From an uncultured Acidobacteriota bacterium (GTDB lineage Bacteria > Acidobacteriota > Polarisedimenticolia > Polarisedimenticolales > JAIQFR01), in contig CALMJU010000083.1 of NCBI GenBank assembly GCA_937864465.1, positions 47,456 through 111,455 on the forward strand: a stretch of DNA of 64,000 nt. Direction: 5' to 3'. Shown piece after piece: positions 10,767 through 55,658 of the stretch. A model generated the notes under the pieces. That model ran no database searches and had not been told where the DNA came from. It was given only the letters and a program-made list of their open reading frames with translations. Position 1 is the first letter of the stretch; each line of letters opens with the position of its first letter. Both the position numbers and the translations under genes were made by a program.

Positions 10767-10804
10767 GCGGACCGGGGTCGCCTCCTCGAAAAACCCCGGT
10801 CCGC
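10767..10804. repeat. 12-bp perfect inverted repeat (stem-loop) in a 358-nt intergenic region
   Basis: GCGGACCGGGGT (10767-10778), a 14-nt loop, then ACCCCGGTCCGC (10793-10804). Lies between the membrane-protein gene end (11037) and the agmatinase promoter region. Confidence 0.6.
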
Positions 10805-11036
10805 ACCCGGCGGCGAACTCCGTCCGCGACGAGGGTCCCGGTCCCGCCGCGGGCGGCCGGGGGCGGCGCCCCCACCGCGCCCCGAGGATCGGCAAACCGC
10901 GGGCCAGGCTCGCGGGCCGCCGCAACGCTCGCGGGGCGCGCCGATCCGCGGTTTCGAAGGGGGCGGCGAGAGGGGTGTCCGCCGGCGGACGTCACACCGT
11001 CCGCCCGCGGGCAGTGGCGGACCCCCCGCCGGCCCC

Positions 11037-12070: not shown

Positions 12071-12137
12071 GCGGCCTCCGAGCGAATTCTACTCGAACCT
12101 CCCGCCCGGTCCCCAAGGGCACGCTCCGGCGCGCGCC

Positions 12138-12146
12138 TGCTAGAAT
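12138..12146 (+). promoter_or_regulatory. putative extended -10 element (TGcTAGAAT) upstream of top6B
   Basis: TGCTAGAAT lies 47 nt upstream of ATG 12193, in the divergent gap shared with the DUF2085 gene. Confidence 0.3.
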
Positions 12147-12192
12147 CCGCTCGCAGCGCCGGAGCGGGCGCGGCGGGGAGGACGGACCCGGG

Positions 12193-32319: not shown

Positions 32320-34026
32320 TCACATCACGTACCCGCCTCGATCGTCCTCGGGCCCCGCCGCGCCGTCGTCCTCCTCCGGCTCCCGGGCCTGCCGGGCCCT
32401 CTCGTCCTCGATCGCCCGCAGGATCTCCTCCTCCTCCGGGATCCGGACGTTGTGGATCGCCCCGAGCAGCAGGAGCCCCTGGCCCACCATCGCCGGGTCC
32501 TCCTCGAGCCAGTCCCGGAGCGGATCGATCAGCTCCTCCGTGCCGAAAAGGCTGACCCACTCCGTCGTGGTGCCCGGCCCGATCTCCTCCATGAACCAAT
32601 GGAGGTGCGCCGTCACGGCATCGTACGCGCTCCGGGTCCCCAGGTCGCAGAGGAGGACCAGGAGGCTGTGCGCCGCATCGGGGTCCACGGCGTCCGCCTC
32701 GATCTTCGCGCGCGTCGGGGCCACGATCGCGTCGCCGAGCATCGAGAGGGCCCGCTCGGCGGCGCCGTAGATGTAGGAGTTCTCGTCCGAGAGGTACTCC
32801 ATGATCTCGGGGATGAAGTGCACCGAGCGCAGATCGCCGAGCGTCTCGAGCGCCACGACCTTCGGGAAGAACGGCCCCTGGGCCTCGAGCATCCGGAGGC
32901 ACCAGTCCTGCGCCCTTCCGCCGCGCTCCTCGTCGTCGCGGCACAGCACGGCGATCGCCCTCGGGAGCTCCGGCAGGACGAACGCCGTCTCGACCTCCGC
33001 CAGGCGAAGGAGCTCGTCGAGGTCCCCCCGCGCCCTCGTGAGGGCGAGCGCGACGTTGCGGTATCGGGCCACGGCGAAGGCGGCCGAGAGCTGGAAGCCG
33101 ACCACCCACTGCTGGAACTGGTGGCCGAGCCGCCCGACGTCGTCGAGCATCGACTGCCCCGCGAACGCCCCGACCGCCGCCTCGATCCTCGCCGGGAGGT
33201 CGTCGGCCGGGTCCCTCGGGATCCTGGCGACGGCGCCCCTAGTCCACTCCGAGATCGCCCGCACGATGTCGCCGAGGTCGCCCGCTCGGAAGCGCTGGGC
33301 GATCTGCCGGATCGTCCCTTCGCCCATCGCGGCGAGGATGTCGCAGTCGTACCCCGACTCGACCGCCTTGATCGTCTTCCGCAGCTCGATCCGCCCCGAG
33401 GGTCCGGTCCGGAAGCACCAGCCGGCGTCGTCGATCTGCAAGCTCTCGAGGAGCGTGCGGAAACCTTCCCCGGCCCGGTGCGCCCCACGCCACTGGAGGG
33501 CGGTGAGGAACCGGGACAGCACGCCCGGGATCTCCTCCGCCGAGGCGATCTCGAGAGCTCCCCGCAGCGCGGAGGGCTCGGCGAGGAGCTCCACCTTCTT
33601 CTGGAGGAACTCCCGGACGAGCTCCCTCGCGTCCGGGCTTCCCAGGTCCGCCAGCGCCTCGACGATGAGGCCGAGCGCGGGCTCCGTGAGGTCTCCCCTC
33701 TGGAGCGCCGAGGCGCCCAGGTCGACCGTGCTCGGGTACCCGAGCTTGCAGAGGGCCTGGAGGCAGTAGGCCGGCGTGAGCCCCCGGAGGAGCCGGAAGC
33801 CCCGGAGCAGCACCGAGTAGTGCTTCGGGCTCCCGTGCTCTCCGAGGTGGCGCGCGACCATCGAGGGGGTGGCCTCGTGATCGTCGAGCACGAAGCCCTG
33901 GATCGTATCCGGGCACTCCTCCGGGAAGTGGCGGATCAGACGATCGATGGCCCAGTACCGGACCTCGGGGTCCTCGTACTTCGTGTACCGGGCCAGCTCG
34001 TCGAAGCTCCAGATCCGATCGGACAT
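32320..34026 (-). CDS. hypothetical protein, HEAT/ARM-like helical repeats
   Basis: 568 aa from ATG 34026 ([11 protein letters not shown]). All-helical composition, HEAT-like [14 protein letters not shown], acidic C-terminal tail. The upstream 290 aa of the track ORF are shadow. Confidence 0.65.
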
Positions 34027-34066
34027 CGACACCCGCTCCTGCCCCGCCCCTGCGAGGCGACCCCGG

Positions 34067-34075
34067 ATTCTACCA
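34067..34075 (-). promoter_or_regulatory. putative extended -10 element (TGgTAGAAT on the minus strand) for the HEAT-like gene
   Basis: Plus-strand attctacca (34067-34075), about 40 nt upstream of ATG 34026. Confidence 0.3.
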
Positions 34076-34281
34076 TCCGCGCCGCATCCGTCCCGGCGCC
34101 GCGCCTCGCGCGCCGCCCGGGCGGAAACAGGACCAAGCTCGTCCGCGATCCCGCGGGGCGGGTCCGGGTCCGTTCCGCGGCCGCTCCACTCGACGCCGCG
34201 CGGCGGATGGCGTAATCTTCTCGCCGGCGCGGGGCCGCGGCGCGGGAGCGCGGCGCGCTCGGAAGGTGGAGATCGCAAGGC

Positions 34282-34806
34282 ATGGAGACGGGGAGCGCCC
34301 GCTTGCGTTACGAGATGACCGGCGTGCGCCAGGGGTGGCTCGTCGTCGAGCACGAGATCCGCTCCATGGCCAAGCGCGCGTATTTCTCCGCCGGCCCTGC
34401 GTCTCCCGTCGAGGAGTACCGCGAGGGCCGGGACGTCTGGACGCCCGCGGAGGTGGCCCAGTCGTTCCGCTTCGACCTCCGCGACCACGAGACAGGCGAG
34501 ACGATCCCCTTCGACGAGCTTCTCGGGCTCGCGTTCTGGGGGAGCTGCCCGCGGTCGAGCACGATCTGGGAGCTCGGCGACGCCGCGCAGGAGCATCGGA
34601 TCTCCGTCTACGTCGCCGTGACCTTCGGAGGGGGCGAGGGCCCGGGCCTCGCTCCGGCGAAGCTGCGGGCGCTGAACCGCTACTTCAACGAGCGCCTCCG
34701 CGACCCCGGCAAGAGGATCCTGATCCTGCCGGACCTTTTCGGCCTGTACCGGGAGTTCTCGCACGGGCACATCATGGTGGACCTCGGCCTGACGGCGATG
34801 CAGTGA
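34282..34806 (+). CDS. hypothetical protein
   Basis: 174-aa ORF with high-GC3 codon usage, lying 28 nt upstream of the DRTGG gene. No family recognised. Confidence 0.5.
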   Translation: METGSARLRYEMTGVRQGWLVVEHEIRSMAKRAYFSAGPASPVEEYREGRDVWTPAEVAQSFRFDLRDHETGETIPFDELLGLAFWGSCPRSSTIWELGDAAQEHRISVYVAVTFGGGEGPGLAPAKLRALNRYFNERLRDPGKRILILPDLFGLYREFSHGHIMVDLGLTAMQ

Positions 34807-34834
34807 GGCGGGGGCAGAGGAGGACAGCGCGCCG

Positions 34835-35164
34835 ATGACGATCAAGGAGATCGCGGAGAAGCTCGGGCTGCAGCCGTTGACGGCGCTCTCGGAGCGGACG
34901 GTCACAGGCGTCTACATCTCGGACATGGTCAGCGACGTCATCGCCAACGCCAAGGCCGGCAACGTCCTCGTCACGGTCCAGGTCCACAACAACGTGATCG
35001 CGGCGGCGAACCTCGTGGACGTCGCGGCGATCGTGGTGACGCGGGGGCGGAAGCCTGCCGACGACACGCTGCAGCTCGCGGAGAAGGCCGGGATCCCGGT
35101 TCTCTTCACCGAGCTGAACAGCTGGCAGATCGCGAGCCACCTCTACGAAGCCGGACTCCGCTGA
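34835..35164 (+). CDS. DRTGG domain protein
   Basis: 109 aa. MTIKEIAEKLGL, VTGVYISDMVSDVIANAKAGNVLVT and AAIVVTRGRKPADDTLQLAEKAGIPVL follow the pattern of the small DRTGG proteins I recall from [FeFe]-hydrogenase gene clusters. Confidence 0.8.
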   Translation: MTIKEIAEKLGLQPLTALSERTVTGVYISDMVSDVIANAKAGNVLVTVQVHNNVIAAANLVDVAAIVVTRGRKPADDTLQLAEKAGIPVLFTELNSWQIASHLYEAGLR

Positions 35165-35179
35165 CGCGGGCTTCGAGGC

Positions 35180-35551
35180 GTGGACGCCGGATTCCCCGTG
35201 CGGCTCTCCGAGATCCGCGACCTTCTCGAGTGCGACGTGCTCTGCGGGGAGGACCGCCTCGATCTCGAGATCGAGGAGTGCTTCGCGGCGGATCTCATGA
35301 GCGACGTCCTGGCCTACTGCCGGCCGAACGCCCTGCTCCTCACGGGCCTGACCGGGGTGCAGTCGGTGCACACGGCGGACGTGGCCGAGCTCGCCGCCGT
35401 CGTGTACGTGAACCGGAAGCGGCCGGCCGGGCACATCCTGGATATCGCGAGAGAGAAGGAGATCCCGCTCCTCTCGACGCCGCGCACCCTCTACGAGGCG
35501 TGCGGGATCCTCCGAGCGAGCGGGTTCGCCGGGGGATCGAGGACCCGATGA
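35180..35551 (+). CDS. DRTGG domain protein (second copy)
   Basis: 123 aa, GTG start. AADLMSDVLAY, ALLLTGLTG and REKEIPLLST give the same fold pattern as the preceding gene. Confidence 0.7.
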   Translation: MDAGFPVRLSEIRDLLECDVLCGEDRLDLEIEECFAADLMSDVLAYCRPNALLLTGLTGVQSVHTADVAELAAVVYVNRKRPAGHILDIAREKEIPLLSTPRTLYEACGILRASGFAGGSRTR

Positions 35552-36018
35552 CGCAGGAGCGGCCCCGAGAGGACGACGTCGCCGGGGCGCCCGCCGACGT
35601 CCTCTACCGGGAAGCCTTCCGGATCTCCGGGGGCGACTACGAGCACGGGGGAGAGGTGGCGGCCCGAGTGAAGGCGATCCTCAAGGAGCTGGGGATCGAC
35701 CCGGCCTGCTCCCGGAGGCTCAGCATCGCGAACTTCGAGGCCGAGATGAACGTGATCATGTACGCGGAGAGCGCCGACCTCGTCCTCGAGGTCGCCGGGG
35801 ACGAGGTCCGCGTCACGGTCGCGGACCGCGGGCCCGGGATCCCGGACATCGGCCTGGCGATGCAGGAGGGGTACTCGACCGCCACCGCGGAGATGCGGGC
35901 GCGCGGCTTCGGCGCCGGCATGGGCCTGCCGAACATGAAGCGCAACACGGACCGGTTCGAGATCGAGTCGGTCGTCGGCGGCGGGACCACGCTCCGGTAC
36001 GCGGTCCGGATCGCCTGA
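35548..36018 (+). CDS. GHKL-type ATPase (anti-sigma-factor/Ser-kinase-like HATPase_c protein)
   Basis: N-box EAEMNVIMYA, G1 DRGPGI, G2 GFGAGMGLPN. 156 aa, no DHp or sensor domain. ATGA overlap with the upstream stop. Confidence 0.8.
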   Translation: MTQERPREDDVAGAPADVLYREAFRISGGDYEHGGEVAARVKAILKELGIDPACSRRLSIANFEAEMNVIMYAESADLVLEVAGDEVRVTVADRGPGIPDIGLAMQEGYSTATAEMRARGFGAGMGLPNMKRNTDRFEIESVVGGGTTLRYAVRIA

Positions 36019-36027
36019 GAGCGGGCG

Positions 36028-37386
36028 ATGAGCGAGATCCGGCACTCGATCCTGTTCGACGAGAAGCGGTGCATCGCCTGCGTCGCCTGCACGAAAGCCT
36101 GCCCCAGCCGCGCGATCCGCGTGCGCGGCGGCCGCGTGCAGGTGAACGCGGATCTCTGCATCGACTGCGGGGAGTGCATCCGCGCGTGCCCGCACGACGC
36201 CATGAGCGTGAGGACGTCCTCTCCGTCCGACCTGAAGCGGTTCCGCCACACCGTGGCGATCCCCTCGACGACGCTGTACACGCAGTTCGGCGGGGACGTC
36301 CGTCCCTCCCATCTCCTCCACGCGCTGACGCGGATCGGATTCGACTCCTTCTACGACATGTCGTGGATGTGCGAGATGGTGGGCCAGGCCCTCGACGCCT
36401 ACCTCTCGGAGTGCCAGGACCCCTGGCCGAAGATCTCGGTCACCTGCCCCGCCGTGATCCGGCTGATCCAGATCCGGTATCCGGACCTGCTCCCGCACCT
36501 GGCGCCGATCGAGTCGCCGAGGGAGCTGACCGCGAAGCTCATCCGGAGGCGGGTGGCCCAGGAGAGGGGCCTCCCGCCCGAGGAGATCGGCATCTTCTAC
36601 GTCACGCCGTGCTCGGCGATCATGCACTCGATCATCTACCCCGTGGGGCTCGAAGAGTCGTACCTCGACGGCGCCTTCTCCGTCGCCGAGGTCTACGGGC
36701 CTCTGCGCATGGCGATGGAGGAGATGGGAGAGGCCTCCTCGTCCTCCGCCACCGGGTTCAGCCCGAGAGGGCTCGGCTGGGCGGCGGCGGGGGGAGAGAG
36801 CGCCATGATGCGCAACGCGAACACGCTGACCGTCAACGGGGTCGCGGAGATCACGCACGTCTTCGACCGGATCGAGGCGGGGAAGTTCCGGAGCGTCGAC
36901 TACATCGAGGCGTACATCTGCCCGGAGGGCTGCGTGAGCGGCCCTCTCCTCGTCGAGGGCTGGTGGAGGGCGAAGCGGAACCTGCGGGAGGTGATCTCTC
37001 GGCTGGGGCGCCAGGCCTCGATCCAGGAGGAGAAGACGCGCAAGCTCTTCCGGGAGCACTTCTTCGACCTCGAGGAGGAGGTCAAGGCCAGGGCGCTGCG
37101 TCCGATCGCCCGGGATCTCAAGCAGGCGATCCTCCGGAAGCGGGAGAAGGAGGGGCTCCTCGCGCTGCTCCCCGGGAAGAACTGCGCCGCGTGCGGGGCG
37201 CCGGACTGCGCCACCCTCGCGGAGGACATCCTGGAGGGGGACGCGGTCCCGGAGGACTGCGTGTTCGTGAAGCTCGATCGGCTCGCCGGCCCGTCCTCCG
37301 CCCGCGGCGGGAAGGCATCCAACGACTCCCGGGCGAAGGAGCGCCCCGGCCCGCCCGGCGCGGCGGGCCCGGAGAGGGACACATGA
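36028..37386 (+). CDS. [FeFe]-hydrogenase-domain protein, HydS-like putative sensor (2x[4Fe-4S] ferredoxin + H-domain + C-terminal Fe-S domain)
   Basis: CIACVACTKACP and CIDCGECIRACP ferredoxin motifs. H-domain motifs SVTCPAV (L1), VTPCSAIM (L2) and EAYICPEGCVSGP (L3). C-terminal CAACGAPDC...C Fe-S motif. Confidence 0.85.
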   Translation: MSEIRHSILFDEKRCIACVACTKACPSRAIRVRGGRVQVNADLCIDCGECIRACPHDAMSVRTSSPSDLKRFRHTVAIPSTTLYTQFGGDVRPSHLLHALTRIGFDSFYDMSWMCEMVGQALDAYLSECQDPWPKISVTCPAVIRLIQIRYPDLLPHLAPIESPRELTAKLIRRRVAQERGLPPEEIGIFYVTPCSAIMHSIIYPVGLEESYLDGAFSVAEVYGPLRMAMEEMGEASSSSATGFSPRGLGWAAAGGESAMMRNANTLTVNGVAEITHVFDRIEAGKFRSVDYIEAYICPEGCVSGPLLVEGWWRAKRNLREVISRLGRQASIQEEKTRKLFREHFFDLEEEVKARALRPIARDLKQAILRKREKEGLLALLPGKNCAACGAPDCATLAEDILEGDAVPEDCVFVKLDRLAGPSSARGGKASNDSRAKERPGPPGAAGPERDT

Positions 37387-37784
37387 GCAAGAACATGCTG
37401 GTGATGGAGGTGACCTGTCCGAACTGCGGCGACCTCCTCACGGAGGGGCGGAGGGTCCATCTCGAGGCGTACATCAAGGACACGAACCAGGACGGCAAGA
37501 TCTTTCTGAGCGCGATCTTCGGCGACGACTCGATCGAGACCGACATCGAGGTCCCGGACGGGTCGGTTGCGGAGTTCCGCTGCCCGACGTGCGACGTGAG
37601 CCTGATGCTCAACACCCCGTGCAAGCTGTGCGGGGCGACGATGGCGTCCCTCAACCTCGCGACGGGCGGGTACCTGGAGTTCTGCTCCCGGCGAGGATGC
37701 AGGGGGCACGCGCTCGGAGGATTCGGCGACATCGACCAGATGATCGGCCTCGTCAACCGGATGATGAAGACGCCTCACGACTGA
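37383..37784 (+). CDS. hypothetical zinc-ribbon protein (CPNC / CPTC / CKLC / CxxxGCxxH)
   Basis: 133 aa. ATGA overlap with the HydS-like gene stop. Four Cys pairs suggest two zinc ribbons. No family recognised. Confidence 0.65.
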   Translation: MSKNMLVMEVTCPNCGDLLTEGRRVHLEAYIKDTNQDGKIFLSAIFGDDSIETDIEVPDGSVAEFRCPTCDVSLMLNTPCKLCGATMASLNLATGGYLEFCSRRGCRGHALGGFGDIDQMIGLVNRMMKTPHD

Positions 37785-37797
37785 GCGGGAGCTGCCC

Positions 37798-38268
37798 ATG
37801 GACCCGACCCGACCGTACGACTTCAAGCACCTGCACTACGTCGGCCAGGAGGGGCGGCTGATTCCCCTCCTCCAGCAGGCCCAGGCCGAGGACGGCTACC
37901 TGACGCGGGAGAGGCTCCTCCGGATCGGGGACGAGACCGGGATCCCCCTGACCCAGATCTACGGCGTCGCCACCTTCTACGCGCAGTTCCGGTTCAAGCC
38001 GGTCGGCAAGAACCTGCTCCGGGTCTGCCACGGGACGGCATGCCACGTGAGCGGGGCCAAGGAGCTCACCGAAGAGATCGAGGGCCAGCTCGGGGTGGCG
38101 AACGGGGAGACGACGCAGGACGGCCTCTTCACGATGGAGACCGTGTCCTGCCTCGGCTGCTGCAGCCTCGCCCCCGTGATCATGATCAACGAGACCACGC
38201 ACGGGAACCTGACCCCGGCCGGGGTCAAGAAGGTCCTCAGGAAATACCGGGACGGGGAGAAGAAATGA
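37798..38268 (+). CDS. NuoE/HydC-like [2Fe-2S] thioredoxin-fold subunit
   Basis: VCHGTACHVSG and SCLGCCSLAPV cluster ligands, plus the YGVATFYAQF motif. 156 aa. Confidence 0.9.
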   Translation: MDPTRPYDFKHLHYVGQEGRLIPLLQQAQAEDGYLTRERLLRIGDETGIPLTQIYGVATFYAQFRFKPVGKNLLRVCHGTACHVSGAKELTEEIEGQLGVANGETTQDGLFTMETVSCLGCCSLAPVIMINETTHGNLTPAGVKKVLRKYRDGEKK

Positions 38269-40031
38269 CCAGGGTGATCGTCGGCCTCGGGACCTGCGGG
38301 ATCGCCGCGGGCGCCGAGGAGACCTACCGGAGCCTCGCGGAGAAGCTCTCCTCCGGTCCGGCGGGGGTCTCGCTGGGGCGCACCGGCTGCATCGGGATGT
38401 GCTACCAGGAGCCGCTCGTAGAGGTCCGGGACGGGGACGGCGGGCGCTACCTGTACGGGAAGGTCACGCCGGAACGCGCCGAGCGGATCGCCGCCGAGCA
38501 CGTCGGCGGCGGGAAGCCGATTCCGGACTGGCTGGTCTGGTCGGACTCGGGCGCGGGGACGGAGTCGGACTTCCTGCGGAAGCAGACGCGGATCGCGCTG
38601 CGCAACTGCGGGCACATCGACCCCGAGGCGATCGACGACTACCTCGCGGCGGGAGGCTACGAGGCGCTGCGGAAGGTCCTCGAGGAGAGTGATCCCGACG
38701 GGCTGATCACGAGGATCGTGGACTCGGGCCTCCGGGGCCGCGGCGGGGCCGGATTCCTGACCGGCCTCAAGTGGCGATTCACGCGGCTCGCCCAGGGGAA
38801 GCGCAAGTTCGTGATCTGCAACGCGGACGAGGGGGACCCGGGCGCCTTCATGGACCGGTCGGTGCTCGAGGGGGACCCGCACTCGGTGCTCGAGGGGATG
38901 GCGATCGCGGCCCACGCGATCGGCGCCGACCACGGCTACATCTACGTCCGCGCCGAGTACCCGCTCGCGATCCGCCGCCTGAACGTCGCCATCGGCCAGG
39001 CGGAGGAGCGAGGGTTCCTCGGGGACAAGATCCTCGGGACCGGGTTCTCTCTCCACGTGAAGCTCAAGGAAGGGGCCGGGGCCTTCGTGTGCGGCGAGGA
39101 GACCGCGCTCATCGCATCGGTGGAGGGACGGCGCGGGATGCCGCGCGTCCGGCCGCCGTTCCCCGCCGTGAGGGGGCTCTGGGACTCCCCCACGAACATC
39201 AACAACGTCGAGACGTTCGCGAACGTCCCCTGGATCGTGCTCCAGGGACACGCGGCCTTCGCCGCTCTCGGCACCGCGAACAGCAAGGGGACGAAGGTCT
39301 TCGCGATGGCGGGCAAGATCCGCCGCGGAGGCCTCGTCGAGGTCCCGATGGGGATCTCCATCAAGGACATCGTGTTCGAGGTGTGCGGCGGCATCAAGGA
39401 GGGCCGGAAGTTCAAGGCGGTCCAGATGGGGGGTCCCTCCGGAGGCTGCATCCCCGCCGAGCTCCAGGACACGGTGATCGACTACGAGTCCATCAACCGG
39501 ACGGGGGCGATCATGGGGTCGGGCGGGCTCGTGGTGATGGACGACACCACGTGCATGGTCGAGGTCGCCCGCTTCTTCCTGGACTTCACTCAGCGCGAGT
39601 CCTGCGGCAAGTGCACGTTCTGCCGGATCGGCAGCAAGCGCATGCTCGAGGTCCTCACGAGGATCACGGAGGGCGAGGGCAAGGAGGGGGACATCGAGCT
39701 CCTCGAGGACCTCGCCGTGCGCACGAAGAGCACCTCCCTGTGCGGCCTCGGCCAGACGGCGCCGAACCCGGTGCTCACGACGCTCAAGTACTTCCGCTCG
39801 GAATACGAGGCGCACATCCACAACCGCAAGTGCCCCGCGCACCGCTGCGCGAAGCTCCTGACCTACTCGATCACGGACGACTGCACGGGCTGCACGCTCT
39901 GCGTGAAGGCCTGCCCCACCGCGGCGATCACGGGAGAGAAGCTCCGGAAGCACTCGATCGACGTCGCGAAGTGCATCGCCTGCGGCGCCTGCTTCAAGGT
40001 CTGCCGGGCCGGCGCCATTCTGAGGGACTGA
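38265..40031 (+). CDS. NuoF/HydB-like NADH- and FMN-binding iron-sulfur subunit
   Basis: N-terminal thioredoxin-like [2Fe-2S] (GTCGIAAG...GCIGMC), FMN/NADH site GRGGAGF and NADEGDPGAF, SLBB region, N3 cluster ESCGKCTFCR...C, C-terminal 2x[4Fe-4S] (CTGCTLCVKACP, CIACGACFKVC). ATGA overlap with nuoE-like. Confidence 0.92.
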   Translation: MTRVIVGLGTCGIAAGAEETYRSLAEKLSSGPAGVSLGRTGCIGMCYQEPLVEVRDGDGGRYLYGKVTPERAERIAAEHVGGGKPIPDWLVWSDSGAGTESDFLRKQTRIALRNCGHIDPEAIDDYLAAGGYEALRKVLEESDPDGLITRIVDSGLRGRGGAGFLTGLKWRFTRLAQGKRKFVICNADEGDPGAFMDRSVLEGDPHSVLEGMAIAAHAIGADHGYIYVRAEYPLAIRRLNVAIGQAEERGFLGDKILGTGFSLHVKLKEGAGAFVCGEETALIASVEGRRGMPRVRPPFPAVRGLWDSPTNINNVETFANVPWIVLQGHAAFAALGTANSKGTKVFAMAGKIRRGGLVEVPMGISIKDIVFEVCGGIKEGRKFKAVQMGGPSGGCIPAELQDTVIDYESINRTGAIMGSGGLVVMDDTTCMVEVARFFLDFTQRESCGKCTFCRIGSKRMLEVLTRITEGEGKEGDIELLEDLAVRTKSTSLCGLGQTAPNPVLTTLKYFRSEYEAHIHNRKCPAHRCAKLLTYSITDDCTGCTLCVKACPTAAITGEKLRKHSIDVAKCIACGACFKVCRAGAILRD

Positions 40032-40035
40032 ATTC

Positions 40036-43000
40036 ATGGCTCTCGTGAAGCTCGAAATCGACGGGAAGCGGATCATCGCGGACCCGAACCGCACCATCCT
40101 CGAGGTCGCCCGCGAGAACGGCATCTCGGGCATCCCCACTCTCTGCCACGACGGCCAGCTCGAGCCGTTCGCCTCGTGCTTCCTGTGCGTGGTGAAGGTG
40201 CGGGGGGCGCGGACGCTCCTTCCCGCCTGCGCCACGAAGGTCGCCGCCGGCATGGTCGTGGTGACGAACGACGAGGAGATCCGCCTGTCCCGGAAGGCGG
40301 CCCTCGAGCTCCTCCTCTCGAACCACTACGCCGACTGCGTCGGGCCGTGCCAGCTCGAGTGCCCCGCCGCGGTGGACATCCAGGGGTACATCGCCCTCGC
40401 GGCCCTCGGGAAGTACCGGGACGCCGTGCGGCTCATCAAGGAGAAGAACCCGCTGCCGTCGGTGTGCGGCCGCGTCTGCACCCGGCCCTGCGAGGTCAAG
40501 GGCTGCCGGCGGAACCTCCTCGACGAGGCGGTCGGGATCGACTGGATCAAGCGCTACGTCACCGACCTGGACCTCGGGAGCGGGGACGCGTGGAAGCCGG
40601 AGGTGGCGCCCCCGAACGGCCGGCGAGTGGCCGTCGTCGGAGCGGGCCCCGCCGGGCTGTCCTGCGCCTACTACCTCGCGGTCCGCGGGTACGAGGTCAA
40701 GATCTTCGAGGCGCTCCCCGAGGCGGGAGGGATGCTGCGCTACGGCATCCCGGAGTACCGGCTGCCGAAGGAGGTCCTCGACCTGGAGATCGACCAGATC
40801 CTGAGCCTCGGCGTGACGCTCCAGACGAACGCGGAGCTCGGGCGGGACTTCACCGTGGCGGGACTGAAGCGCGAAGGCTTCGGCGCGATCTTCCTCGGCC
40901 TCGGCGCCTGGGCGAGCTCGGAGATGCGGGTCAAGGGCGAGAACCTGCCGGGCGTCCTGTCCGGGATCGAGTTCCTGAAGAACTTCGGGCTGCGGCGCAA
41001 GATCGACATCTGGGGCCGGGTGCTCGTGGTCGGAGGAGGGAACACCGCGATCGACTGCGCCAGGACGGCTCTCCGGCTCGGCGTGAAAGAGGTCCGGCTC
41101 CTCTACCGGAGGACCCGGAACGAGATGCCCGCGAACGCCGCGGAGATCCACGAAGCCGAGCAGGAGAGGGTTCGCATGGACTTCCTCGTGGCCCCGGTCC
41201 GCGTGATCGCGGCGGGAGACCGGGTCACGGCGCTCGAATGCCTGCGGATGGAGCTCGGCGAGCCGGACGCGAGCGGCCGGAGGAGCCCGAAGCCGGTGCG
41301 GGGCTCCGAGTTCACGATCGACTGCGACTTCGTGATCTCGGCGATCGGGCAGGCCACGCTGGTTCCCCGCCTGCTCGACGGCCGGGTCCCGGACCTCCTG
41401 CCCGCCGGCGAGGTGCTCAACCTCACGCGCTGGCAGACGATCCAGGTGCGCGAGGGGACCGGCGAGACGAGCGTCGAGGGGGTGTTCTCGGGCGGCGACG
41501 TCGTGACCGGGGCCGCGACCGCGATCGAGGCGATCGCCGCGGGGCGCAAGGCGGCCCACGCGATCGACTCCTATCTCCGCGGCGCGGGGGTCCGGCCCGA
41601 GCCCTGGGAGTTCTTCAGCCGCAAGGACACCTTCAAGAAGGTAGACCTCGAGGATCTGAGGAGCCGGGAGTCGGCGCCGAGGCGGCAGATGCCCCTCCTG
41701 TCGATCGAGGACCGGGTGAAGAGCTTCGTCGAGGTGGAGCTCGGGTACACGCCCGAGGACCTCGAGGCGGAGGCGCGCCGGTGCCTCGAGTGCGGCTGCA
41801 CCGCCCTGTTCGACTGCGACCTCCGCCGCTACGCGACGGAGTACGGGGTGGACATCACCCGGTTCCTGGGCGAGGCCCGGGAGTGCCGGATCGACCGGAG
41901 CCATCCGCTCATCGATCTCGATCCGAACAAGTGCATCCTGTGCGGGCGCTGCGTCCGGATCTGCTCGGAGGTCGTCGGCGAGGCCGCTTTCGGGTTCCTC
42001 CAGAGAGGTTTCCAGACGGCGGTGAAGCCCGCGCTCGGCGGGTCCCTCCTCGACACGGACTGCGTGACCTGCGGGATGTGCATCGGCACCTGCCCCACAG
42101 GGGCGATCGCGGAGAAGTCGTCGCTCGCGAAGCCGGGCCCCTGGAAGGCCGAACGGGTTTCCTCCGTCTGCCCGTACTGCGGGGTCGGCTGCCGGCTCGA
42201 CCACGAGGCGCACGGAGACACGCTGGTGACGGTTTCCCGAAGCGAGGACGAGACCGCGCTGTACGGGAAGCACTGCAAGAAGGGACGATTCGGATACCGC
42301 CACGTGAGCGCCTCCGACCGGCTCGCCGGAGCCCGGGTCCGCACCGGGCGCGCCCTCCAGGAGACGCCGATTCCGGGCGCGATCGACTACACGGCGATGC
42401 GCCTCCGGGAGCTGACGCGGCGCTCCACCGGATCGGAGATGCTGGTCCTCGTGTCCCCGCGGCTCACGAACGAGGAGATCTATCTCGCGCAGAAACTCGC
42501 GCGCGTCGCGCTGAAGACGCACAACGTCACCACCACGGCGCATCTCGTGAACCCGGGCCTGCCCTGCCCCGACGTCGTCTCTACGGCGTCCTACGCCGAG
42601 ATCGCCGACGCCCAGGCCCTCCTCCTCGTCCACTCGAACCTCCCCGAGGAGCACTTCGTCGCGGATCTCCTCGTCAAGCAGTCCCTCCGCAAGGGCGGGC
42701 GGCTCCTGTACGTCCATCCCGAGGAGAACCGCCTGGCGCGCCTGGCGGAGGTGTTCCTCCGCTGCCGGCCGGGGACCGAGCCCCTCGTGGCCCTCGGGAT
42801 CCTGCGGGCGGTTCTCGATCTGCGCGGCGGGCCGGTCCCGGACGTCCCGGGCCTCGGAGAGGCGCTCGCCGGGCTGCGCGGCGAAACCCTCCGGGAGCGC
42901 ACGGGCGTGGACCCGGCGCTGGTCGAGCGGGCCGCCGCGATCCTGGAGAAGAGCATCCTCAAGACCGCGATCCTGAACAAGGATTATCGCGGGAGCCGGG

Positions 43001-43794
43001 CGGCCGGGGACGAGCGGTGGCTCGCCGCGGCGGCGCGCGGGCTCGGGTGCTCCCTCCTCTGTCTCCACGAGAAGGCGAACATGCAGGGGCTCCTCGACAT
43101 GGGGGCGAGCCCCGGGTGGTACCCGGGCTACCTCCCCGCGGGCGACGAGGCCGTCGTCGAGGAACTCGAGAAGGAGTGGTGCGTGGCTCTCCGGGACCTC
43201 GACGCCCGGCCGGTCGACGTCGCCGCCCTGCTCCGGGAGAAGAAGATCCGCGTCGCGGTCGTCCTCGGGGAGGACCCGTTCGGGAACCCCGACGTGCCCG
43301 CGGATCTGATCGAGGGGCTCCTCGCCGCCGATCTTCTCGTGGTCGGGGACCTCTTCTTCACCGAGACGGCGAAGATGGCCCACGTCGTGCTCCCGCTCTC
43401 GGCCCCCGCGGAGACGAGCGGGACCTACACGAATTCCGAGCGCAGGGTCCAGCGGCTGCGGCGCGTCGTGCCGCCCCCCGCGGGACTCGAGACGTGGGAG
43501 ATCCTCGTCGGGATCGGCGCCAGGATGGGCTACCGGTTCAAGATGAAGTACGCGGGGACCGGCGAGATCCTCGACGAGATCCGCCGGGTCGCTCCGATCT
43601 ACGCCTCGGTCGATCCCGACGACGGAGCCGGCGGCATCTGGGATCTCTCGGGGTTCCGGCTCGCCGCGGGAGAGCTCGCCCCGCTCGCCCCCGCTGCCGC
43701 TCCCGGGCGGACCCTTCCTCTCGACCGGCTGGAGTCCGGATTTCGGGCCTGGTTCGAGGATCTGATGGAGAAGGCCCGGACCGCCCCCCGCTGA
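40036..43794 (+). CDS. multidomain iron-sulfur flavoprotein: [2Fe-2S] + GltD/NfnB-like NAD(P)H:FAD module + [4Fe-4S] clusters + Cys-less molybdopterin-oxidoreductase-like domain
   Basis: N-terminal NuoG-type 2Fe-2S (CHDG...CFLC...AC). GltD-like region (PLPSVCGRVCTRPCE, VAVVGAGPAGLSCAYYL, VVGGGNTAIDCARTA, SGGDVV). CILCGRCVRIC and CVTCGMCIGTCP ferredoxin motifs. MopB 4Fe-4S CPYCGVGC and HCKKGRF. 1252 aa. Confidence 0.88.
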   Translation: MALVKLEIDGKRIIADPNRTILEVARENGISGIPTLCHDGQLEPFASCFLCVVKVRGARTLLPACATKVAAGMVVVTNDEEIRLSRKAALELLLSNHYADCVGPCQLECPAAVDIQGYIALAALGKYRDAVRLIKEKNPLPSVCGRVCTRPCEVKGCRRNLLDEAVGIDWIKRYVTDLDLGSGDAWKPEVAPPNGRRVAVVGAGPAGLSCAYYLAVRGYEVKIFEALPEAGGMLRYGIPEYRLPKEVLDLEIDQILSLGVTLQTNAELGRDFTVAGLKREGFGAIFLGLGAWASSEMRVKGENLPGVLSGIEFLKNFGLRRKIDIWGRVLVVGGGNTAIDCARTALRLGVKEVRLLYRRTRNEMPANAAEIHEAEQERVRMDFLVAPVRVIAAGDRVTALECLRMELGEPDASGRRSPKPVRGSEFTIDCDFVISAIGQATLVPRLLDGRVPDLLPAGEVLNLTRWQTIQVREGTGETSVEGVFSGGDVVTGAATAIEAIAAGRKAAHAIDSYLRGAGVRPEPWEFFSRKDTFKKVDLEDLRSRESAPRRQMPLLSIEDRVKSFVEVELGYTPEDLEAEARRCLECGCTALFDCDLRRYATEYGVDITRFLGEARECRIDRSHPLIDLDPNKCILCGRCVRICSEVVGEAAFGFLQRGFQTAVKPALGGSLLDTDCVTCGMCIGTCPTGAIAEKSSLAKPGPWKAERVSSVCPYCGVGCRLDHEAHGDTLVTVSRSEDETALYGKHCKKGRFGYRHVSASDRLAGARVRTGRALQETPIPGAIDYTAMRLRELTRRSTGSEMLVLVSPRLTNEEIYLAQKLARVALKTHNVTTTAHLVNPGLPCPDVVSTASYAEIADAQALLLVHSNLPEEHFVADLLVKQSLRKGGRLLYVHPEENRLARLAEVFLRCRPGTEPLVALGILRAVLDLRGGPVPDVPGLGEALAGLRGETLRERTGVDPALVERAAAILEKSILKTAILNKDYRGSRAAGDERWLAAAARGLGCSLLCLHEKANMQGLLDMGASPGWYPGYLPAGDEAVVEELEKEWCVALRDLDARPVDVAALLREKKIRVAVVLGEDPFGNPDVPADLIEGLLAADLLVVGDLFFTETAKMAHVVLPLSAPAETSGTYTNSERRVQRLRRVVPPPAGLETWEILVGIGARMGYRFKMKYAGTGEILDEIRRVAPIYASVDPDDGAGGIWDLSGFRLAAGELAPLAPAAAPGRTLPLDRLESGFRAWFEDLMEKARTAPR

Positions 43795-43809
43795 CGACCG
43801 GTCACAGGC

Positions 43810-46800
43810 TCAGTAACCCAGGCGGAGGCCGAGCTCCAGCGTCCTCGGGGGGCCGATCTGGCCGATCGGGCGGCCGAAGTCCGGCGAGATCACGCGCCCT
43901 TCGACCGGCCCTCCGTTGAACCGGTCCAGCAGGTTGAACACCTGGAGGAACATGTCCCCGCGTCCCCGCCCCCGCGCGAACGCGAACGGCTTCGACACGC
44001 GCAGGTCGATCTGGAAGAACGTCGGCGCGGAGAGCGCCGTAACGGGCGGGAGCGGACCCTGCCCGCGAAGCGCCCGGTTGACGTTCTCCGCCTCGCGCAG
44101 CTCGTTCACGATCGCGAGCGGCGTGTCCTCGCCGGTGTTCCGGTCGACGCCCGGAGGCCGGTCGGTCAGGATGCCGTCGAGGTTGTCGTCGACCCCCGTC
44201 GTGACGTTGAAGGGCGCCGCCGAACTCCACTGGATCACGCCCGACGCGCGGAGCCCCATCCACGGCAGGGGCGACTCCCCCGACAGCACGAAGCGATGGC
44301 GCCGGTCGGCGTCCGACGGGCCCTCCTCCCCGTCCAGGTCCCTGTAGTCGGAGGGTAGGTAGATCCCCCCCTTGAGCGGATCCGGCCCCGTGTCGCGGGC
44401 CCGCGACCAGGTGTACGTCGCCTGGTACCAGAACCCCTCGTCGCGCCATCGCCAGGCGAGATCCACGCCCGTGTACTCGCTGCGCCCGTCGGTCACGATC
44501 GCGGCGATCGAGCCCGTCTCCGGGTCGGTGCCGTGCACCGGCATGCACGTGAACCGGTACAGCGGATCGGGGTTCACCGGATCGGGCCCCGCGCAGTTCT
44601 CGACTGCCGTGACGGGATTGAGATCCCGCATCCTGGGGAGCTTTCGCCCGACCGCGCGCGTCGCCTCGATCTGCGCGGACCCGTTCCGCCCCAGGGCCCA
44701 CTCGGCCCCGAGCGACCCCTGGACCGTGTACGGCGTGTCGAGGCGTGTCCCGGTCGAGAACCGCATCACGAGATCCTCGGGGAACTGCACCAACTCTCGG
44801 ATCGTGTCGACGCCCCACTCCTCGACCACGTCCTCGGTGATCTCGAAGGTCAGCCCCTGCACCGGGAGGATGCCGATCTTCGTCCCGGACGTGATCGCGG
44901 ACACGGCCGGAAAGCCCATCGAGAGCTTGTCGTAGAACACCCCTCCGCCGCCGCGCACGACGAAGCTCCCGTCGCCGCGCGGAGCAAACGTGAAGCCGAC
45001 GCGCGGAGCGAAGTTGTTCCCGTCCACGGGGGCTCCCCCGTTCGGGATCGGAGAATCCACGAGGGCGCTCTCGGGGAGCCGGAACGAGCTGCGGTCGTAG
45101 CGGAGCCCGAAGTCGAGCAGAAGCTTCGGGCCGATCCGCCACGAGTCCTGGGCGAAAGCGGAGAGCTGGGTGTCGTACAGCCGCGCCTCGGGCTCCCCGT
45201 CGATCAGCTGATAGAAGAGAGGGTACGTCCCGATGTCCGCCGGATCCCCCCCAGGGGGGTACCAGGACGGGCAAGGGATGATCGGGTACGTCCCGTCTTC
45301 GATCGCCACGCTCACCTGCCAGGCGTAGACGCCGCAGTCCCCGGGGTCGAACGGAGCGTCGGTCTGGTAGAGGAAGTTCCCGTTCGGGTTGAACCGGGTC
45401 CGGATGTCCACGCGCGTCCGCGCGAGGTCGACGCCGAGCTTCAGCGTGTGAGGGCCCGCGGACCAGGTCACGTTGTCCACCACCTGGATCTTGTCCTCTC
45501 CGCGAAGCTGGAGGTTCAGGTTGTTCCCGCCGAACGTGCCCGAGGGCCGGTCGACACCGGGGCGGCTCGAGTTCGCGTACTGGTCGAACGAAGACGAGGA
45601 GAAGAGCACTCGCGCTTCGTGAATCCACGAGGGAGAGAGAACCGAGGTCAGCGACGCGGCGAGCTGGACGTCGTCCTCCTCCAGGCGGAACCCCGCCTCC
45701 GGCGTCGTGCGCCCCCCGACCATCAGCGCGTCGGTCTTCCGCGAGTCGGCGGACAGGCGGACCATCAGGATCTGCCGGGGCGTCAGGTTGAGATCCGTCC
45801 GGAGGAACAGGTTGTCCCCCTCGACCGGCCCCACCGTGTACCCCCCCGCGACCCCGTCCCGCCCGACGCCCACGTACGGAACGATCCGGTCCTCGCGCTG
45901 CCTCTCGTAGGCGGCGAAGTAGAACGCCCGGTCCTCGAGGATCGGCCCCCCCAGACGGAAGCCCGTCTGATAGCGGTCGCCCGTGCGCGGCGCTCCCTCC
46001 GGATCGGGAAGGCTCGACACGAACGGTCCCGCGTCGTTCCACGAGGCCGCGGCCCCCTGGACGAACAGCTCCCCGCTCTCCTGGTTGCCTCCCCGCCGCG
46101 TCACGATGTTGAAGATCCCCCCGCTCGCCCGCCCGAACTCCGCCGCGTAGCGGCTCGTGTTGAGGACGAGCTCCTCCACGACGAGCTGCGAGAAGAAGGC
46201 GTTCATCGAGGTTCCGCTGACCCTGTCGTTGTTGTCGAGGCCGTCCACCAGGAACGAGTTCGAGCGCCCCGACTGGCCGTGGACGACGAAGACCGCCCCC
46301 CGCTCCCCGTAGAAGTCCGCAGCGGCCGCCTGGCGCACCGAGGAGTCGAGCAGCGGAACGTCGGTCACGACGCGGCCCGCGATCGGGAGGGCGTCCGCCA
46401 CCGCCTCGCCGATCCGCATCTCCGTGCCCACCTTCTGCGGGTCCACGAGCCCGGGGCTCGCCCGCACGGTGACCTTCTCCGCGAGGCCGAGGCCGATCGT
46501 CAGATCGAGGCTCGCCGACTGCTGGAGCCGCAGCACGACCGTCCGGGACTCGCTGGAAGCCCCGTCCGGCAGGATCGCCGCGACGGTCCACGCGCCGGGC
46601 GCCAGCGACTCCATCCGGAATCGCCCCTCCGGATCGGTCGCGGCCGAGCGGACGATGCCGGAGGTCTCGGAGCGCGCCCTCACGATCGCGCCCTCGACGA
46701 CCCGGCCCCGTGCGTCGCGGACGGTGCCGCGGAGCGAGGAGGAGGCGGTCTGCGCGGCGGCCGGGACCGCGAGGAGAAGCGATGCGCCGAGGACGAGCGC

Positions 46801-50872: not shown

Positions 50873-52270
50873 ATGAGCGCCACGCCGACGGGCTCGAAGG
50901 AAACCATCACCGCGAGGATCTCCCGGTACGCCGCCGGCGTGCGCTACGACGCGATCGCCCCCGAGGCGGCGCACGAGGCGAAGCGGTACCTTCTCGACTC
51001 GATCGGCTGCGCCCTCGGCGGATTCCTCCAGCACGACTGCCGGATCGCGCTCGACGTGCTCGGCGAGCACGCGGGGCGGGGGCCCTGCACGGTCGTCGGG
51101 ACCGGGGCGCGGATGGACCCGGTCACGGCGTCGCTCCTGAACGCGCTCATGGTGCGCGTGATGGACTACAACGACATCTACTGGAAGCAGGACCCCTCGC
51201 ACCCCTCGGACATCATCCCCGCCGCGATCGCGTGCGGGGAGCGGGCGGGGAAGGACGGCCGGGAGCTGATCGTCGGCATCGTGCTCGGCTACGAGTTCGA
51301 GCAGCGCCTGTGCGAGGCGGCGTTCCCCGGAATCCGGGAGCGCGGCTGGCACCACGCCACGCTCACCGCGTTCGTCTCGCCGATCGTCGCGGCGAGGATG
51401 CTCGACCTCGACGCCGCGAGAATGCAGCATGCGATCGGGATCTCCGGCAGCCGCCATTTCACCCTCGGCGCGGCGGTCTCCGGGAAGCTCTCGATGGTCA
51501 AGAACACGGTGGACCCGCTCGCGACGCAGAGCGGCGTCCTCGCCGCGCTCCTCGCCGAGAAGGGATACACCGGCCCCGAGCACGTGATCGACGGCAAGGA
51601 GGGGATGGTCCACTGTCTCGGCCCGGAGTGGAAGCTCGGAATCCTCGAGGAGGGGCTCGGAGCGTCGTGGCGGATCGTGCAGTGCAGCATGAAGGCGTAC
51701 CCGACGGAGGCGCTGACCCACACGCCGATCTCGGCGGTGCTCGACCTCGTGCGGGAGCACGACCTGAAGCCCGACCGGATCGCGAAGGTCCACATCCGCT
51801 CCCTTGCCCGCGCGGCCGACATCCTGTCCGACCCCTCGAAGTACGACCCGCGCACGAAGGAGACGGCCGACCACTCCCTCCCGTACGTCGTCGCCGCCGC
51901 GATCGCGGAGCGGCAGGTGACCCCGGCGCAGTTCCGGGACGAGAAGATCCTGGATCCCGTGATCCGGGCGCAGCTCCCGAAGGTCGAGGTCGTCGCGGAC
52001 CCGGAGATCGAGAAGCTCTTCCCGAAGCTCTACCGGACGATCGTGAAGATCACGACGGCCGACGGAGGCACGTTCGAGAAGCAGGTGGACTTCCCGAAGG
52101 GAGACCCCCGGAACCCGCTGACCGACCGCGAGGTCGAGGAGAAGTTCGAGGCGCTCGCGGACCGGGTGCTGTCGAAGGAGCGCCAGAGGAAGGTCAAGGA
52201 CGCCGTCTGGGGGCTCGAGAAGCTCCGCTCGATCGGGGACCTGATGGGCCTTCTGGCGACCGACCGGTAG
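50873..52270 (+). CDS. MmgE/PrpD family protein (2-methylcitrate dehydratase family)
   Basis: 465 aa. DSIGCALGG, VMDYNDIY, HPSDIIPAAIA, KAYPTEALTHTP and DHSLPYVVAAA are the family pattern. Substrate unknown. Confidence 0.85.
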   Translation: MSATPTGSKETITARISRYAAGVRYDAIAPEAAHEAKRYLLDSIGCALGGFLQHDCRIALDVLGEHAGRGPCTVVGTGARMDPVTASLLNALMVRVMDYNDIYWKQDPSHPSDIIPAAIACGERAGKDGRELIVGIVLGYEFEQRLCEAAFPGIRERGWHHATLTAFVSPIVAARMLDLDAARMQHAIGISGSRHFTLGAAVSGKLSMVKNTVDPLATQSGVLAALLAEKGYTGPEHVIDGKEGMVHCLGPEWKLGILEEGLGASWRIVQCSMKAYPTEALTHTPISAVLDLVREHDLKPDRIAKVHIRSLARAADILSDPSKYDPRTKETADHSLPYVVAAAIAERQVTPAQFRDEKILDPVIRAQLPKVEVVADPEIEKLFPKLYRTIVKITTADGGTFEKQVDFPKGDPRNPLTDREVEEKFEALADRVLSKERQRKVKDAVWGLEKLRSIGDLMGLLATDR

Positions 52271-52283
52271 GGAGAGGCGCGCG

Positions 52284-54218: not shown

Positions 54219-54273
54219 AGAGGAAACGGGCAACCGCCCGACACGAAATCACGAGGAAGCTGGAGGCATCCCC

Positions 54274-55458: not shown

Positions 55459-55479
55459 CTCATGATCGATCGCGCCCGA

Positions 55480-55617
55480 TCGCGGATTCGACCGGCGCGG
55501 CACGCTTCGGCGTTGCGCGGCCGAGGGTCGCCGCGCCGCCTCGCTCCGCGCGGCGAGCGGCCTTTCGACGAAGAACCGGCCGCTCGCCGCGAGGGCCGCT
55601 TGCGGTCGAATCCGCGA
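55480..55617 (+). promoter_or_regulatory. highly structured intergenic RNA element (nested perfect stems) upstream of citDE
   Basis: Outer 15-bp stem 55480-55494 / 55603-55617 (TCGCGGATTCGACCG / CGGTCGAATCCGCGA). Inner 13-bp hairpin 55550-55562 / 55578-55590 (GCGGCGAGCGGCC / GGCCGCTCGCCGC). ACGC-UUCG-GCGU tetraloop hairpin at 55502-55513. CGAGG/CCTCG stem at 55522-55543. Confidence 0.6.
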
Positions 55618-55618
55618 C

Positions 55619-55643
55619 GGACCGCGCAGGACCGGCAGGACCG
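55619..55643 (+). repeat. three tandem GGACCG motifs immediately upstream of the citDE Shine-Dalgarno sequence
   Basis: GGACCG at 55619-55624, 55629-55634 and 55638-55643, followed by AAGGAGG (55647-55653) and ATG 55659. Confidence 0.6.
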
Positions 55644-55658
55644 CGAAAGGAGGGCGCT

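Follow-up and report, generated by a model that had tools for sequence, protein, structure and literature searches.

What does a bacterial protein do that joins, in one chain, a NuoG-type [2Fe-2S] domain, a GltD-like module for reduced nicotinamide adenine dinucleotide phosphate (NADPH) and flavin adenine dinucleotide (FAD), and a half that resembles formate dehydrogenase (FDH)? The question is raised by a gene at 40036-43794 in the 64,000-nucleotide stretch of DNA that we analysed (contig CALMJU010000083.1 of an uncultured Acidobacteriota bacterium, positions 47,456 to 111,455; hereafter the window), which encodes 1252 amino acids (aa). By comparison with sequences of known enzymes, this protein is very probably the large subunit BfuA (StnC/NfnA) of a three-subunit Stn/Nfn-Bfu (NfnABC) electron-bifurcating transhydrogenase encoded at 37798-43794, whose function, by analogy, would most likely be the reversible transhydrogenation of NADPH with NAD+ and oxidised ferredoxin. 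The initial annotation of this locus regarded such a fusion beside NuoE and NuoF as unusual, but the combination is the defining Stn/Nfn-Bfu gene arrangement and has been in print since 2020 (PMC7483475). Unless stated otherwise, all features below lie on the forward strand of the window and residue numbers refer to the 1252-aa protein.

The three-gene unit and its known relatives

A description of Stn/Nfn-Bfu enzymes appeared in 2020 (PMC7483475) and a classification in 2022 (PMC9304861); cryo-electron microscopy structures followed in 2023 and 2025 (8oh5, 9bov and 9n5u; PMC10482914, PMC11829005, PMC12018979). The enzymes are characterized by NAD+- and ferredoxin-dependent NADPH oxidation and form a tetramer of heterotrimers. 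StnC consists of a GltD NADPH-binding domain fused with a NuoG domain and holds one [2Fe-2S] and six [4Fe-4S] clusters (PMC10482914), and the Stn criterion is a trio of NuoE-like, NuoF-like and GltD/NuoG-fusion genes (PMC7483475). The present assignment is based on the domain layout, on conserved ligands and lost catalytic residues, and on the partner genes and synteny.

We identified the 1252-aa protein and its NuoE-like and NuoF-like partners by a search against Protein Data Bank (PDB) chains. The large protein matches 9bov_A (NfnA, 1178 aa) with E 1.8e-249, residues 1-900 being aligned to 1-876 and a further segment at 1062-1171, followed by 8oh5_C (StnC, 1172 aa; E 5.8e-228) and 9n5u_A (archaeal NfnA, 963 aa; E 4.2e-195). 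All column counts given below rest on the 120 best database matches to this protein, from assemblies held by NCBI, JGI, ENA and Logan, which have E = 0, 98-100% query coverage, lengths of 1225-1278 aa and 63-74% identity. Together these matches support an StnC/NfnA (Bfu)-type large subunit that would act as the NADPH-oxidising FAD/iron-sulphur (Fe-S) electron input of the complex. StnC had been named correctly as a near relative in the initial annotation, which did not recognise that StnC itself is this fusion.

The gene directly upstream (38265-40031) encodes a 588-aa StnB/NfnB (BfuB)-type subunit, starting from an ATG at 38265 that overlaps the nuoE-like stop codon rather than from the first possible start of its long open reading frame (ORF). 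It aligns end to end with 9bov_B (E 5.9e-257) and 8oh5_B (E 2.4e-249), covering residues 2-581 of 584. Its motifs comprise C11, C42 and C46 of an N-terminal thioredoxin-like domain, the flavin mononucleotide (FMN)/NAD site GRGGAGF at 158-164, a [4Fe-4S] site (C447/450/453/493), the site H517..C523..C528 and a C-terminal pair of [4Fe-4S] motifs (C540-550 and C570-580). Both the thioredoxin-like and the double [4Fe-4S] extension are included in the BfuB alignment, and it is these N- and C-terminal Fe-S extensions that separate bifurcating BfuB from complex-I NuoF (PMC9304861, PMC11829005). The third gene (37798-38268) encodes a 156-aa StnA/NfnC (BfuC)-type subunit with a thioredoxin-like [2Fe-2S] domain (PF01257, E 2.6e-49) and five cysteines in two motifs, C77x4C82 and C118xxC121C122; its best PDB matches are NfnC, HydC and StnA (9n5u_C, E 7.3e-51; 8oh5_A, E 1.3e-43). 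The NuoE-like, NuoF-like and large-subunit genes are spaced by -4 and +4 nucleotides (nt), and the same gene order is found in ten or more related loci.

Domain order of the large subunit

The large-subunit gene is a single uninterrupted frame of 1252 codons with an ATG start. As the window has a guanine-plus-cytosine (GC) content of about 70% and long spurious ORFs in all frames, coding frames were selected by codon-position GC (third position, GC3, above 0.82; second position, GC2, below 0.6). The frame at 40036-43794 has a GC3 of 0.94, typical of real genes in the window, whereas long ORFs that overlap it in another frame or on the opposite strand (e.g. 39994-43383 on the reverse strand) fail the filter and are probably high-GC artefacts.

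Pfam places Fer2_4 at 3-79, Fer4_20 at 101-178, Pyr_redox_2 at 197-503, Fer4_Nqo3 at 624-691 and Molybdop_Fe4S4 at 707-758, then fragments of the Molybdopterin domain, and gives no match to the Molydop_binding domain (PF01568) in this protein. Together with the motif positions, this bears out the domain order first read from the letters. The N-terminal [2Fe-2S] domain (40042-40272; ligands C37/C48/C51/C65, invariant in all 120 homologs) is the first part of a NuoG/HydA-like module and, by homology, would contact the BfuB/C core (PMC11829005). It is followed by the GltD-type Fe-S region (40324-40569), with H97xxxC101xxxC105xxxC109P, a second motif C144xxxC148xxxC152x4C157, and K172. The FAD/NADPH-binding module (Pyr_redox_2, 40624-41544) holds the glycine motif VGAGPAG (GxGxxG, 201-207), R242, a second glycine motif VGGGNTA (332-338) and YRRT at 357-360. 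Both glycine sequences had been listed as GxGxxG motifs; the second is GxGxxA, and this motif (G333-A338) and Y357RRT align with the region of StnC and NfnA that holds their second glycine motif, of the NADP(H) type.

The Fe-S region at 41782-42108 completes the split NuoG-type site with C583xxC586xC588x5C594 and adds two ferredoxin-type [4Fe-4S] motifs. The initial annotation had given both of the latter as CxxCxxCxxxCP, which holds for C676xxC679xxC682xxxC686 and its following proline, whereas C633xxC636xxC639xxxC643 ends in serine. The MopB-type [4Fe-4S] domain comes next (42154-42309), with CPYCGVGC at 712-719 supplying C712, C715 and C719, and with C747.

How do the curated family models score this protein? 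The SfrB-type model PRK12814 covers residues 1-650 with 652.6 bits, below its cut-off of 916; NuoG (TIGR01973) reaches 248.2 bits against 470.05, and formate dehydrogenase (TIGR01591) 250.2 against 666.25. We rejected complex-I NuoG on its score below cut-off and on the GltD insertion, which is foreign to NuoG; a Pfam scan of about 27 of the larger ORFs of the window revealed no further nuo genes among them. An SfrAB-type NADPH oxidoreductase was likewise rejected on the single chain and the PRK12814 score. SfrA plus SfrB had been named, beside StnC/NfnB-type subunits, as the closest known proteins; a fusion of the two Sfr proteins is not the best description, given this score and the published insertion of GltD into a NuoG/HydA-type Fe-S module.

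Cofactor ligands and the FAD-proximal cluster

All 28 cysteines of the cluster motifs, H97, K172 and R242 are invariant in 120 of 120 homologs. K172 aligns with StnC K170, a strictly conserved lysine ligand of the FAD-proximal cluster, and R242 with StnC R239, an arginine near the FAD; mutagenesis has shown that both StnC residues are required for activity (PMC10482914). Insertion of GltD into the NuoG-like Fe-S module leaves the motifs HxxxCxxxCxxxCP and CxxCxCxxxxC (PMC7483475). The former is matched exactly (H97..P110), whereas C583..C594 has five residues before its last cysteine instead of the published four.

The FAD-proximal site differs from the solved bacterial enzymes in one respect. 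StnC and the NfnA of Caldicellulosiruptor saccharolyticus have Cys114 and Ile143, and StnC Cys114 has been proposed as an alternative ligand of this cluster (PMC10482914); the 1252-aa protein has Ile115 (40378-40380) and Cys144 (40465-40467) instead. Position 115 is isoleucine in 109 and valine in 11 of the 120 homologs, with Cys144 invariant. Since archaeal NfnA also has no cysteine there, the Cys114 equivalent is a subclade trait and does not define the family. The "CGRVC" form with Cys144 is that of canonical GltD-type proteins. The exchange is a new but modest point for this clade.

The formate-dehydrogenase-like half

Is the C-terminal half a working molybdenum or tungsten enzyme? It comprises degenerate FdhA-like MopB domains I-III without catalytic residues (42310-43791), as read from the alignment, homolog columns, a structure model and Foldseek comparison. 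In the alignment to FdhF (FdhH) of Escherichia coli MG1655, Sec140 and His141 are replaced by Val838 and Asn839, and Arg333 by His1011; residues 828-839 read THNVTTTAHLVN. The segment opposite the FdhF "LWGMGVTQ" stretch is shortened, and the protein stops about 60 residues past domain III, so that the pterin-capping domain IV (PF01568) is absent. The homologs share the loss: the selenocysteine column is valine in 89, leucine in 16, alanine in 10 and isoleucine in 3, with cysteine in none of the 120, and the histidine column is asparagine in 115. Column 1011 varies more, with arginine in 61 and histidine in 47 of the 120. In six more distant fusion lineages of about 1230-1270 aa, too, the aligned position is without a Cys-His pair. 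The initial annotation had judged catalysis at molybdenum or tungsten unlikely and had suggested alignment with FdhA as a check; the alignment and the 120 homologs uphold that judgement, and the missing domain IV adds to it.

The fold of this half is predicted with confidence: in an AlphaFold (AF2) model of residues 560-1252, the predicted local distance difference test score exceeds 90 over most of the MopB-like part. The best Foldseek matches of the model are alpha subunits of NAD-dependent FDH, 9bov_A (NfnA) and 8oh5_C (StnC), ahead of NuoG. Because Foldseek scores NfnA/StnC and true FDH alpha subunits alike (all between E 1e-35 and 1e-38), fold alone does not decide membership, which at the level of sequence is settled by the full-length matches and the partner genes.

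The solved homologs suggest what this half may do. StnC has no formate:methyl viologen activity (PMC7483475) and its FdhF-like domain has been termed catalytically inactive (PMC10482914), while C. saccharolyticus NfnA has an incomplete pterin site without pterin density and a dead-end, off-pathway cluster branch (PMC11829005). By homology, the C-terminal half would be pterin-free and non-catalytic and would probably serve as a scaffold and oligomerisation surface, and the MopB-type [4Fe-4S] cluster and its neighbour would form an off-pathway branch, as in these homologs.

Proposed mechanism

The homologs serve as the model here for cofactors, electron path, activity and oligomeric state alike, and the solved structures for the individual steps. 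The GltD-like module (residues ~97-560) would oxidise NADPH at its FAD and release the electrons singly into its pair of GltD-type [4Fe-4S] clusters, with Lys172 as a ligand of the proximal cluster. Relayed by the NuoG-type and the N-terminal [2Fe-2S] clusters, the electrons would reach an FMN/[4Fe-4S]/[2Fe-2S] bifurcation site, which the NuoF-like and NuoE-like subunits would build together. There, electron pairs would be divided between NAD+ at high potential and ferredoxin at low potential. In the reverse direction, NADH and reduced ferredoxin would yield NADPH.

The nine-gene operon

The three enzyme genes are the last of nine tightly packed genes (34282-43794), which are spaced by -4 to +28 nt and flanked upstream by a divergent HEAT-repeat gene and downstream by a convergent outer-membrane barrel gene. 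A scan of 33800-44200 for promoter and terminator consensus sequences yielded no promoter-like and one terminator-like match, which is below chance and uninformative at 70% GC. The same nine genes occur in the same order in at least ten loci (L002, L003, L006-L009, L011-L013, L034 and L037). The conservation of a six-gene module before the enzyme genes across several phyla is a second new, modest point of this work.

The first gene (34282-34806) encodes a 174-aa protein without a known family, in which 44 columns are invariant across 11 loci of several phyla. Two DRTGG-domain proteins follow (34835-35164 and 35180-35551, by Pfam), then a 156-aa SpoIIAB-like protein of the histidine-kinase-like ATPase type (35548-36018), a 452-aa [FeFe]-hydrogenase-like protein (36028-37386) and a conserved cysteine-rich, zinc-ribbon-like protein of 133 aa (37383-37784), whose start overlaps the upstream stop codon by 4 nt. 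Profile searches of the 174-aa and 133-aa proteins against PDB sequences returned chance-level matches only (E 0.4-0.9), and Pfam and NCBIfam gave nothing significant for either, only zinc-ribbon matches below threshold. In the literature that we searched for DRTGG together with hydrogenase or Bfu, we found no paper containing "DRTGG", and a review of multimeric [FeFe]-hydrogenases does not discuss accessory genes of this type.

The hydrogenase-like protein consists of two [4Fe-4S] motifs, a remnant of the H-domain and a PF04060 Fe-S domain. The four cysteines of the [4Fe-4S]H subcluster are kept, with the motifs "VTCPA", "TPCSAIM" and "EAYICPEGC". Threonine, isoleucine and tyrosine stand opposite the first TSCCP cysteine, the PCxxK lysine and the ExM methionine of HydA2, positions which we take to correspond to CpI Cys299, Lys358 and Met497. 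The 11 aligned syntenic loci share these changes, apart from minor variation; the relative at locus L033 keeps the lysine. The protein may do without the di-iron subcluster, and because these cysteine, lysine and methionine positions are replaced, it is probably a redox or H2 sensor or a plain Fe-S protein, not a hydrogenase. The 133-aa protein resembles a zinc ribbon because it has eight invariant cysteines (CPxC, CPxC, CxLC and CxxxxC) and an invariant histidine. At locus L004 this cysteine-rich gene (L004:5327-5728) is the only part of the module that the enzyme genes keep, directly upstream of the NuoE-like gene, and for this reason its product may be a companion of the enzyme and not of the sensor genes.

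A related module is found at L033, in a metagenome-assembled genome (MAG) of Bacillota. Here ATPase, hydrogenase-like, DRTGG and PHP-domain genes precede an operon of NuoE, NuoF-GltD and HydA hydrogenase genes, which from its sequence appears to be a Bfu hydrogenase with the NADPH module fused to BfuB instead of BfuA. The full order at L033:1649-11161 is ATPase, hydrogenase-like, DRTGG, PHP, NuoE, ATPase, a 120-aa ORF, a 1011-aa NuoF-GltD protein and true HydA. We also considered that the upstream module is tied specifically to the MopB-like domain, an idea weakened by L033, where the module precedes an operon without that domain. As L033 has the module before a hydrogenase operon and the L004 enzyme genes stand mostly without it, the module is probably a general regulatory companion of Bfu operons.

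Alternative readings

Several observations weigh against the assignment as an Stn/Nfn-Bfu transhydrogenase. The MopB-like half is only 26-27% identical to solved proteins when aligned by Foldseek, and HMMER does not align the two continuously but with a break between residues ~900 and ~1062. The StnC Cys114 equivalent is Ile115, with a different cysteine, C144, invariant in the clade, so that the tuning of the cluster may differ from that in StnC. Furthermore, the operon holds six extra conserved genes, unlike Sporomusa ovata stnABC, which reportedly sits directly between metVF and pabAB, and the host phylum is Acidobacteriota, whereas most Nfn-Bfu enzymes of a 2022 survey came from Euryarchaeota and Firmicutes and some from Synergistetes and Bacteroidetes (PMC9304861).

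Could the same architecture carry out another physiological reaction? A non-bifurcating NADPH:ferredoxin or NADPH:NAD+ reaction, or electron exchange with the hydrogenase-like protein, would fit the six extra genes with their hydrogenase-like Fe-S protein in one packed operon across phyla, the Cys114/Cys144 exchange that marks the FAD-proximal cluster of this clade, and the two-cluster dead-end branch in the MopB-like region of the homologs. We nonetheless consider it unlikely, as BfuB and BfuC align with bifurcating homologs over their whole length, every extension domain included, the Bacillota locus has the same module before a true [FeFe]-hydrogenase Bfu operon without MopB-like domain, and at L004 most of the module is missing beside the enzyme genes. 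A bolder version, in which the six upstream products are physical partners that move electrons through the dead-end cluster branch of the pseudo-FdhA domain, seems very unlikely to us; if true, the transhydrogenase would gain either a fourth entry point for electrons or a redox switch of its own.

A catalytic Fdh-Bfu enzyme with an added NADPH module, in which the MopB half binds molybdenum or tungsten with two molybdopterin guanine dinucleotides and oxidises formate, must be regarded as extremely unlikely. The C-terminal half is indeed FdhA-like in sequence (6tg9_A, E 4.4e-89) as well as in fold, many homologs carry the JGI annotation "formate dehydrogenase major subunit", and catalytic-looking GltD-FdhA fusions are known from Shewanella and Ferrimonas. 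However, the FdhH triad of Sec140, His141 and Arg333 is replaced, PF01568 is missing and the "LWGMGVTQ" segment is shortened, no homolog offers a cysteine at the selenocysteine column, TIGR01591 scores far below its cut-off, and neither formate activity in StnC (PMC7483475) nor pterin density in NfnA (PMC11829005) was observed.

An assembly or frameshift fusion of an SfrB-like and an SfrA/FdhA-like gene, which the initial annotation had named as the finding that would overturn it and to which two-gene SfrAB systems and shorter versions without the MopB half (e.g. L033 and L030) lend some appeal, can be dismissed as practically negligible, because the 120 best matches, from independent assemblies, are all full length with every cluster ligand and the tested lysine and arginine kept, at least ten species-representative genomes of several phyla have full-length copies, solved single chains of 1172 and 1178 aa share the layout, and the GC3 is that of a real gene.

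Distribution and annotation of homologs

How widely the fusion is distributed had been raised at the outset, and full-length copies prove to be present in several phyla, in species-representative genomes that bear the labels Terriglobia, Vicinamibacterales, Acidobacteriota, Bacteroidota, Fibrobacter, Eisenbacteria and Planctomycetota. The closest species representatives are both labelled Acidobacteriota, with identities over the best tblastn segment of 89% for L012, whose contig ends before the gene does, and 87% for L034. For the MopB-like half, an exhaustive search returned 452 cluster representatives at E <= 1e-30, and several lineages of ~1230-1400 aa have a MopB-like domain beginning near residue 690-716. 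The Nfn-Bfu family extends past the phyla stressed in the 2022 survey. Many of the homologs carry the label "formate dehydrogenase major subunit" (at JGI) or "FAD-dependent oxidoreductase". Such proteins are better read as Nfn-Bfu/Stn large subunits, which alters redox-balance reconstructions of MAGs labelled Acidobacteria/Terriglobia/Vicinamibacterales, Bacteroidota, Fibrobacter, Eisenbacteria and Planctomycetota.

Other genes in the window

Elsewhere in the window, a 778-aa ORF (11569-13905) combines topoisomerase VI B-subunit transducer and GHKL ATPase domains in what is apparently a bacterial genome. A run of organic-acid genes at 50873-58444 encodes proteins of the PrpD/MmgE, aconitase and isocitrate/isopropylmalate dehydrogenase families and a citrate lyase alpha (CitF)-like protein; a link of these genes to the transhydrogenase operon is not evident.

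Comparison with known systems

How does the Acidobacteriota enzyme compare with those already described? S. ovata StnC (8oh5/8oh9; PMC7483475, PMC10482914) has the same one-chain domain order, from the [2Fe-2S] domain to the inactive FdhF-like domain. Its partner genes stand in the same order of NuoE-like, NuoF-like and large subunit, and the K170 and R239 equivalents are kept. S. ovata Stn has been produced in an E. coli delta-iscR strain, and among acetogens Stn and Nfn are almost mutually exclusive. StnC is shorter, with 1172 against 1252 aa, the extra residues lying mostly in the poorly aligned region 881-1062 of the MopB-like half (181 residues versus 130 in StnC). Furthermore, stnABC sits directly between metVF and pabAB (PMC7483475) and appears to have no counterpart of the six upstream genes, and its host is an acetogenic Firmicute, as opposed to the Acidobacteriota-like genome studied here.

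NfnA of C. saccharolyticus (9bov/9bp5; PMC11829005) is the best overall match, and its NfnB is the best match of the NuoF-like neighbour. It contains seven Fe-S clusters and FAD, and an Fdh-like domain with an incomplete pterin site (PMC11829005). It differs in having Cys114 and Ile143, as StnC does, and in its thermophilic Firmicute host. The B2/B5 sites of the BfuB encoded in the window may hold either Zn or Fe-S. Thermococcus sibiricus NfnA (9n5u; PMC12018979, PMC9304861) shares the architecture of the N-terminal 740 residues and likewise has no Cys114 equivalent, and T. sibiricus NfnC is the best match of the NuoE-like protein. At 963 aa, however, this archaeal NfnA has a partial C-terminal domain and no cysteines for one cluster, whereas the 1252-aa protein retains the full three-domain MopB remnant and all cysteines.

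Geobacter SfrAB, an NADPH-dependent Fe(III)/ferredoxin oxidoreductase, resembles the 1252-aa protein over the PRK12814 alignment and in retaining the "CGRVC" cysteine (C144), unlike StnC. It is made of two polypeptides, an SfrB-like protein of ~660 aa and an SfrA-like protein, in contrast to the single chain here, and we know of no Sfr locus with NuoE/NuoF partners.

The GltD-FdhA fusions of Shewanella spp. and Ferrimonas marina, with matches at about 8001-11770 of loci L015-L029 and L036, have the same N-terminal layout and 35-36% identity over query residues 1-1189/1203. A scan of 8 kb on each side of the match revealed NuoE/NuoF matches in none of these 16 loci. The three proteins taken into the alignment of catalytic residues (L017, L022 and L029) differ from the 1252-aa protein in being 1367-1432 aa long and in having the Cys-His pair, the Arg333 equivalent and domain IV. 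They look like real single-chain enzymes of the formate-dehydrogenase type, possibly NAD(P)H-linked formate dehydrogenases. As these relatives keep the active-site residues, they serve as an internal control that illustrates the catalytic state of the same architecture.

In conclusion, the architecture, the inactive FDH-like domain and the mechanism have already been published for the solved enzymes, and the 1252-aa protein is an ordinary addition to a known enzyme class. Set beside its relatives, the Cys114/Cys144 exchange near the FAD and the nine-gene operon provide small hypotheses on how Bfu enzymes may be tuned and regulated.

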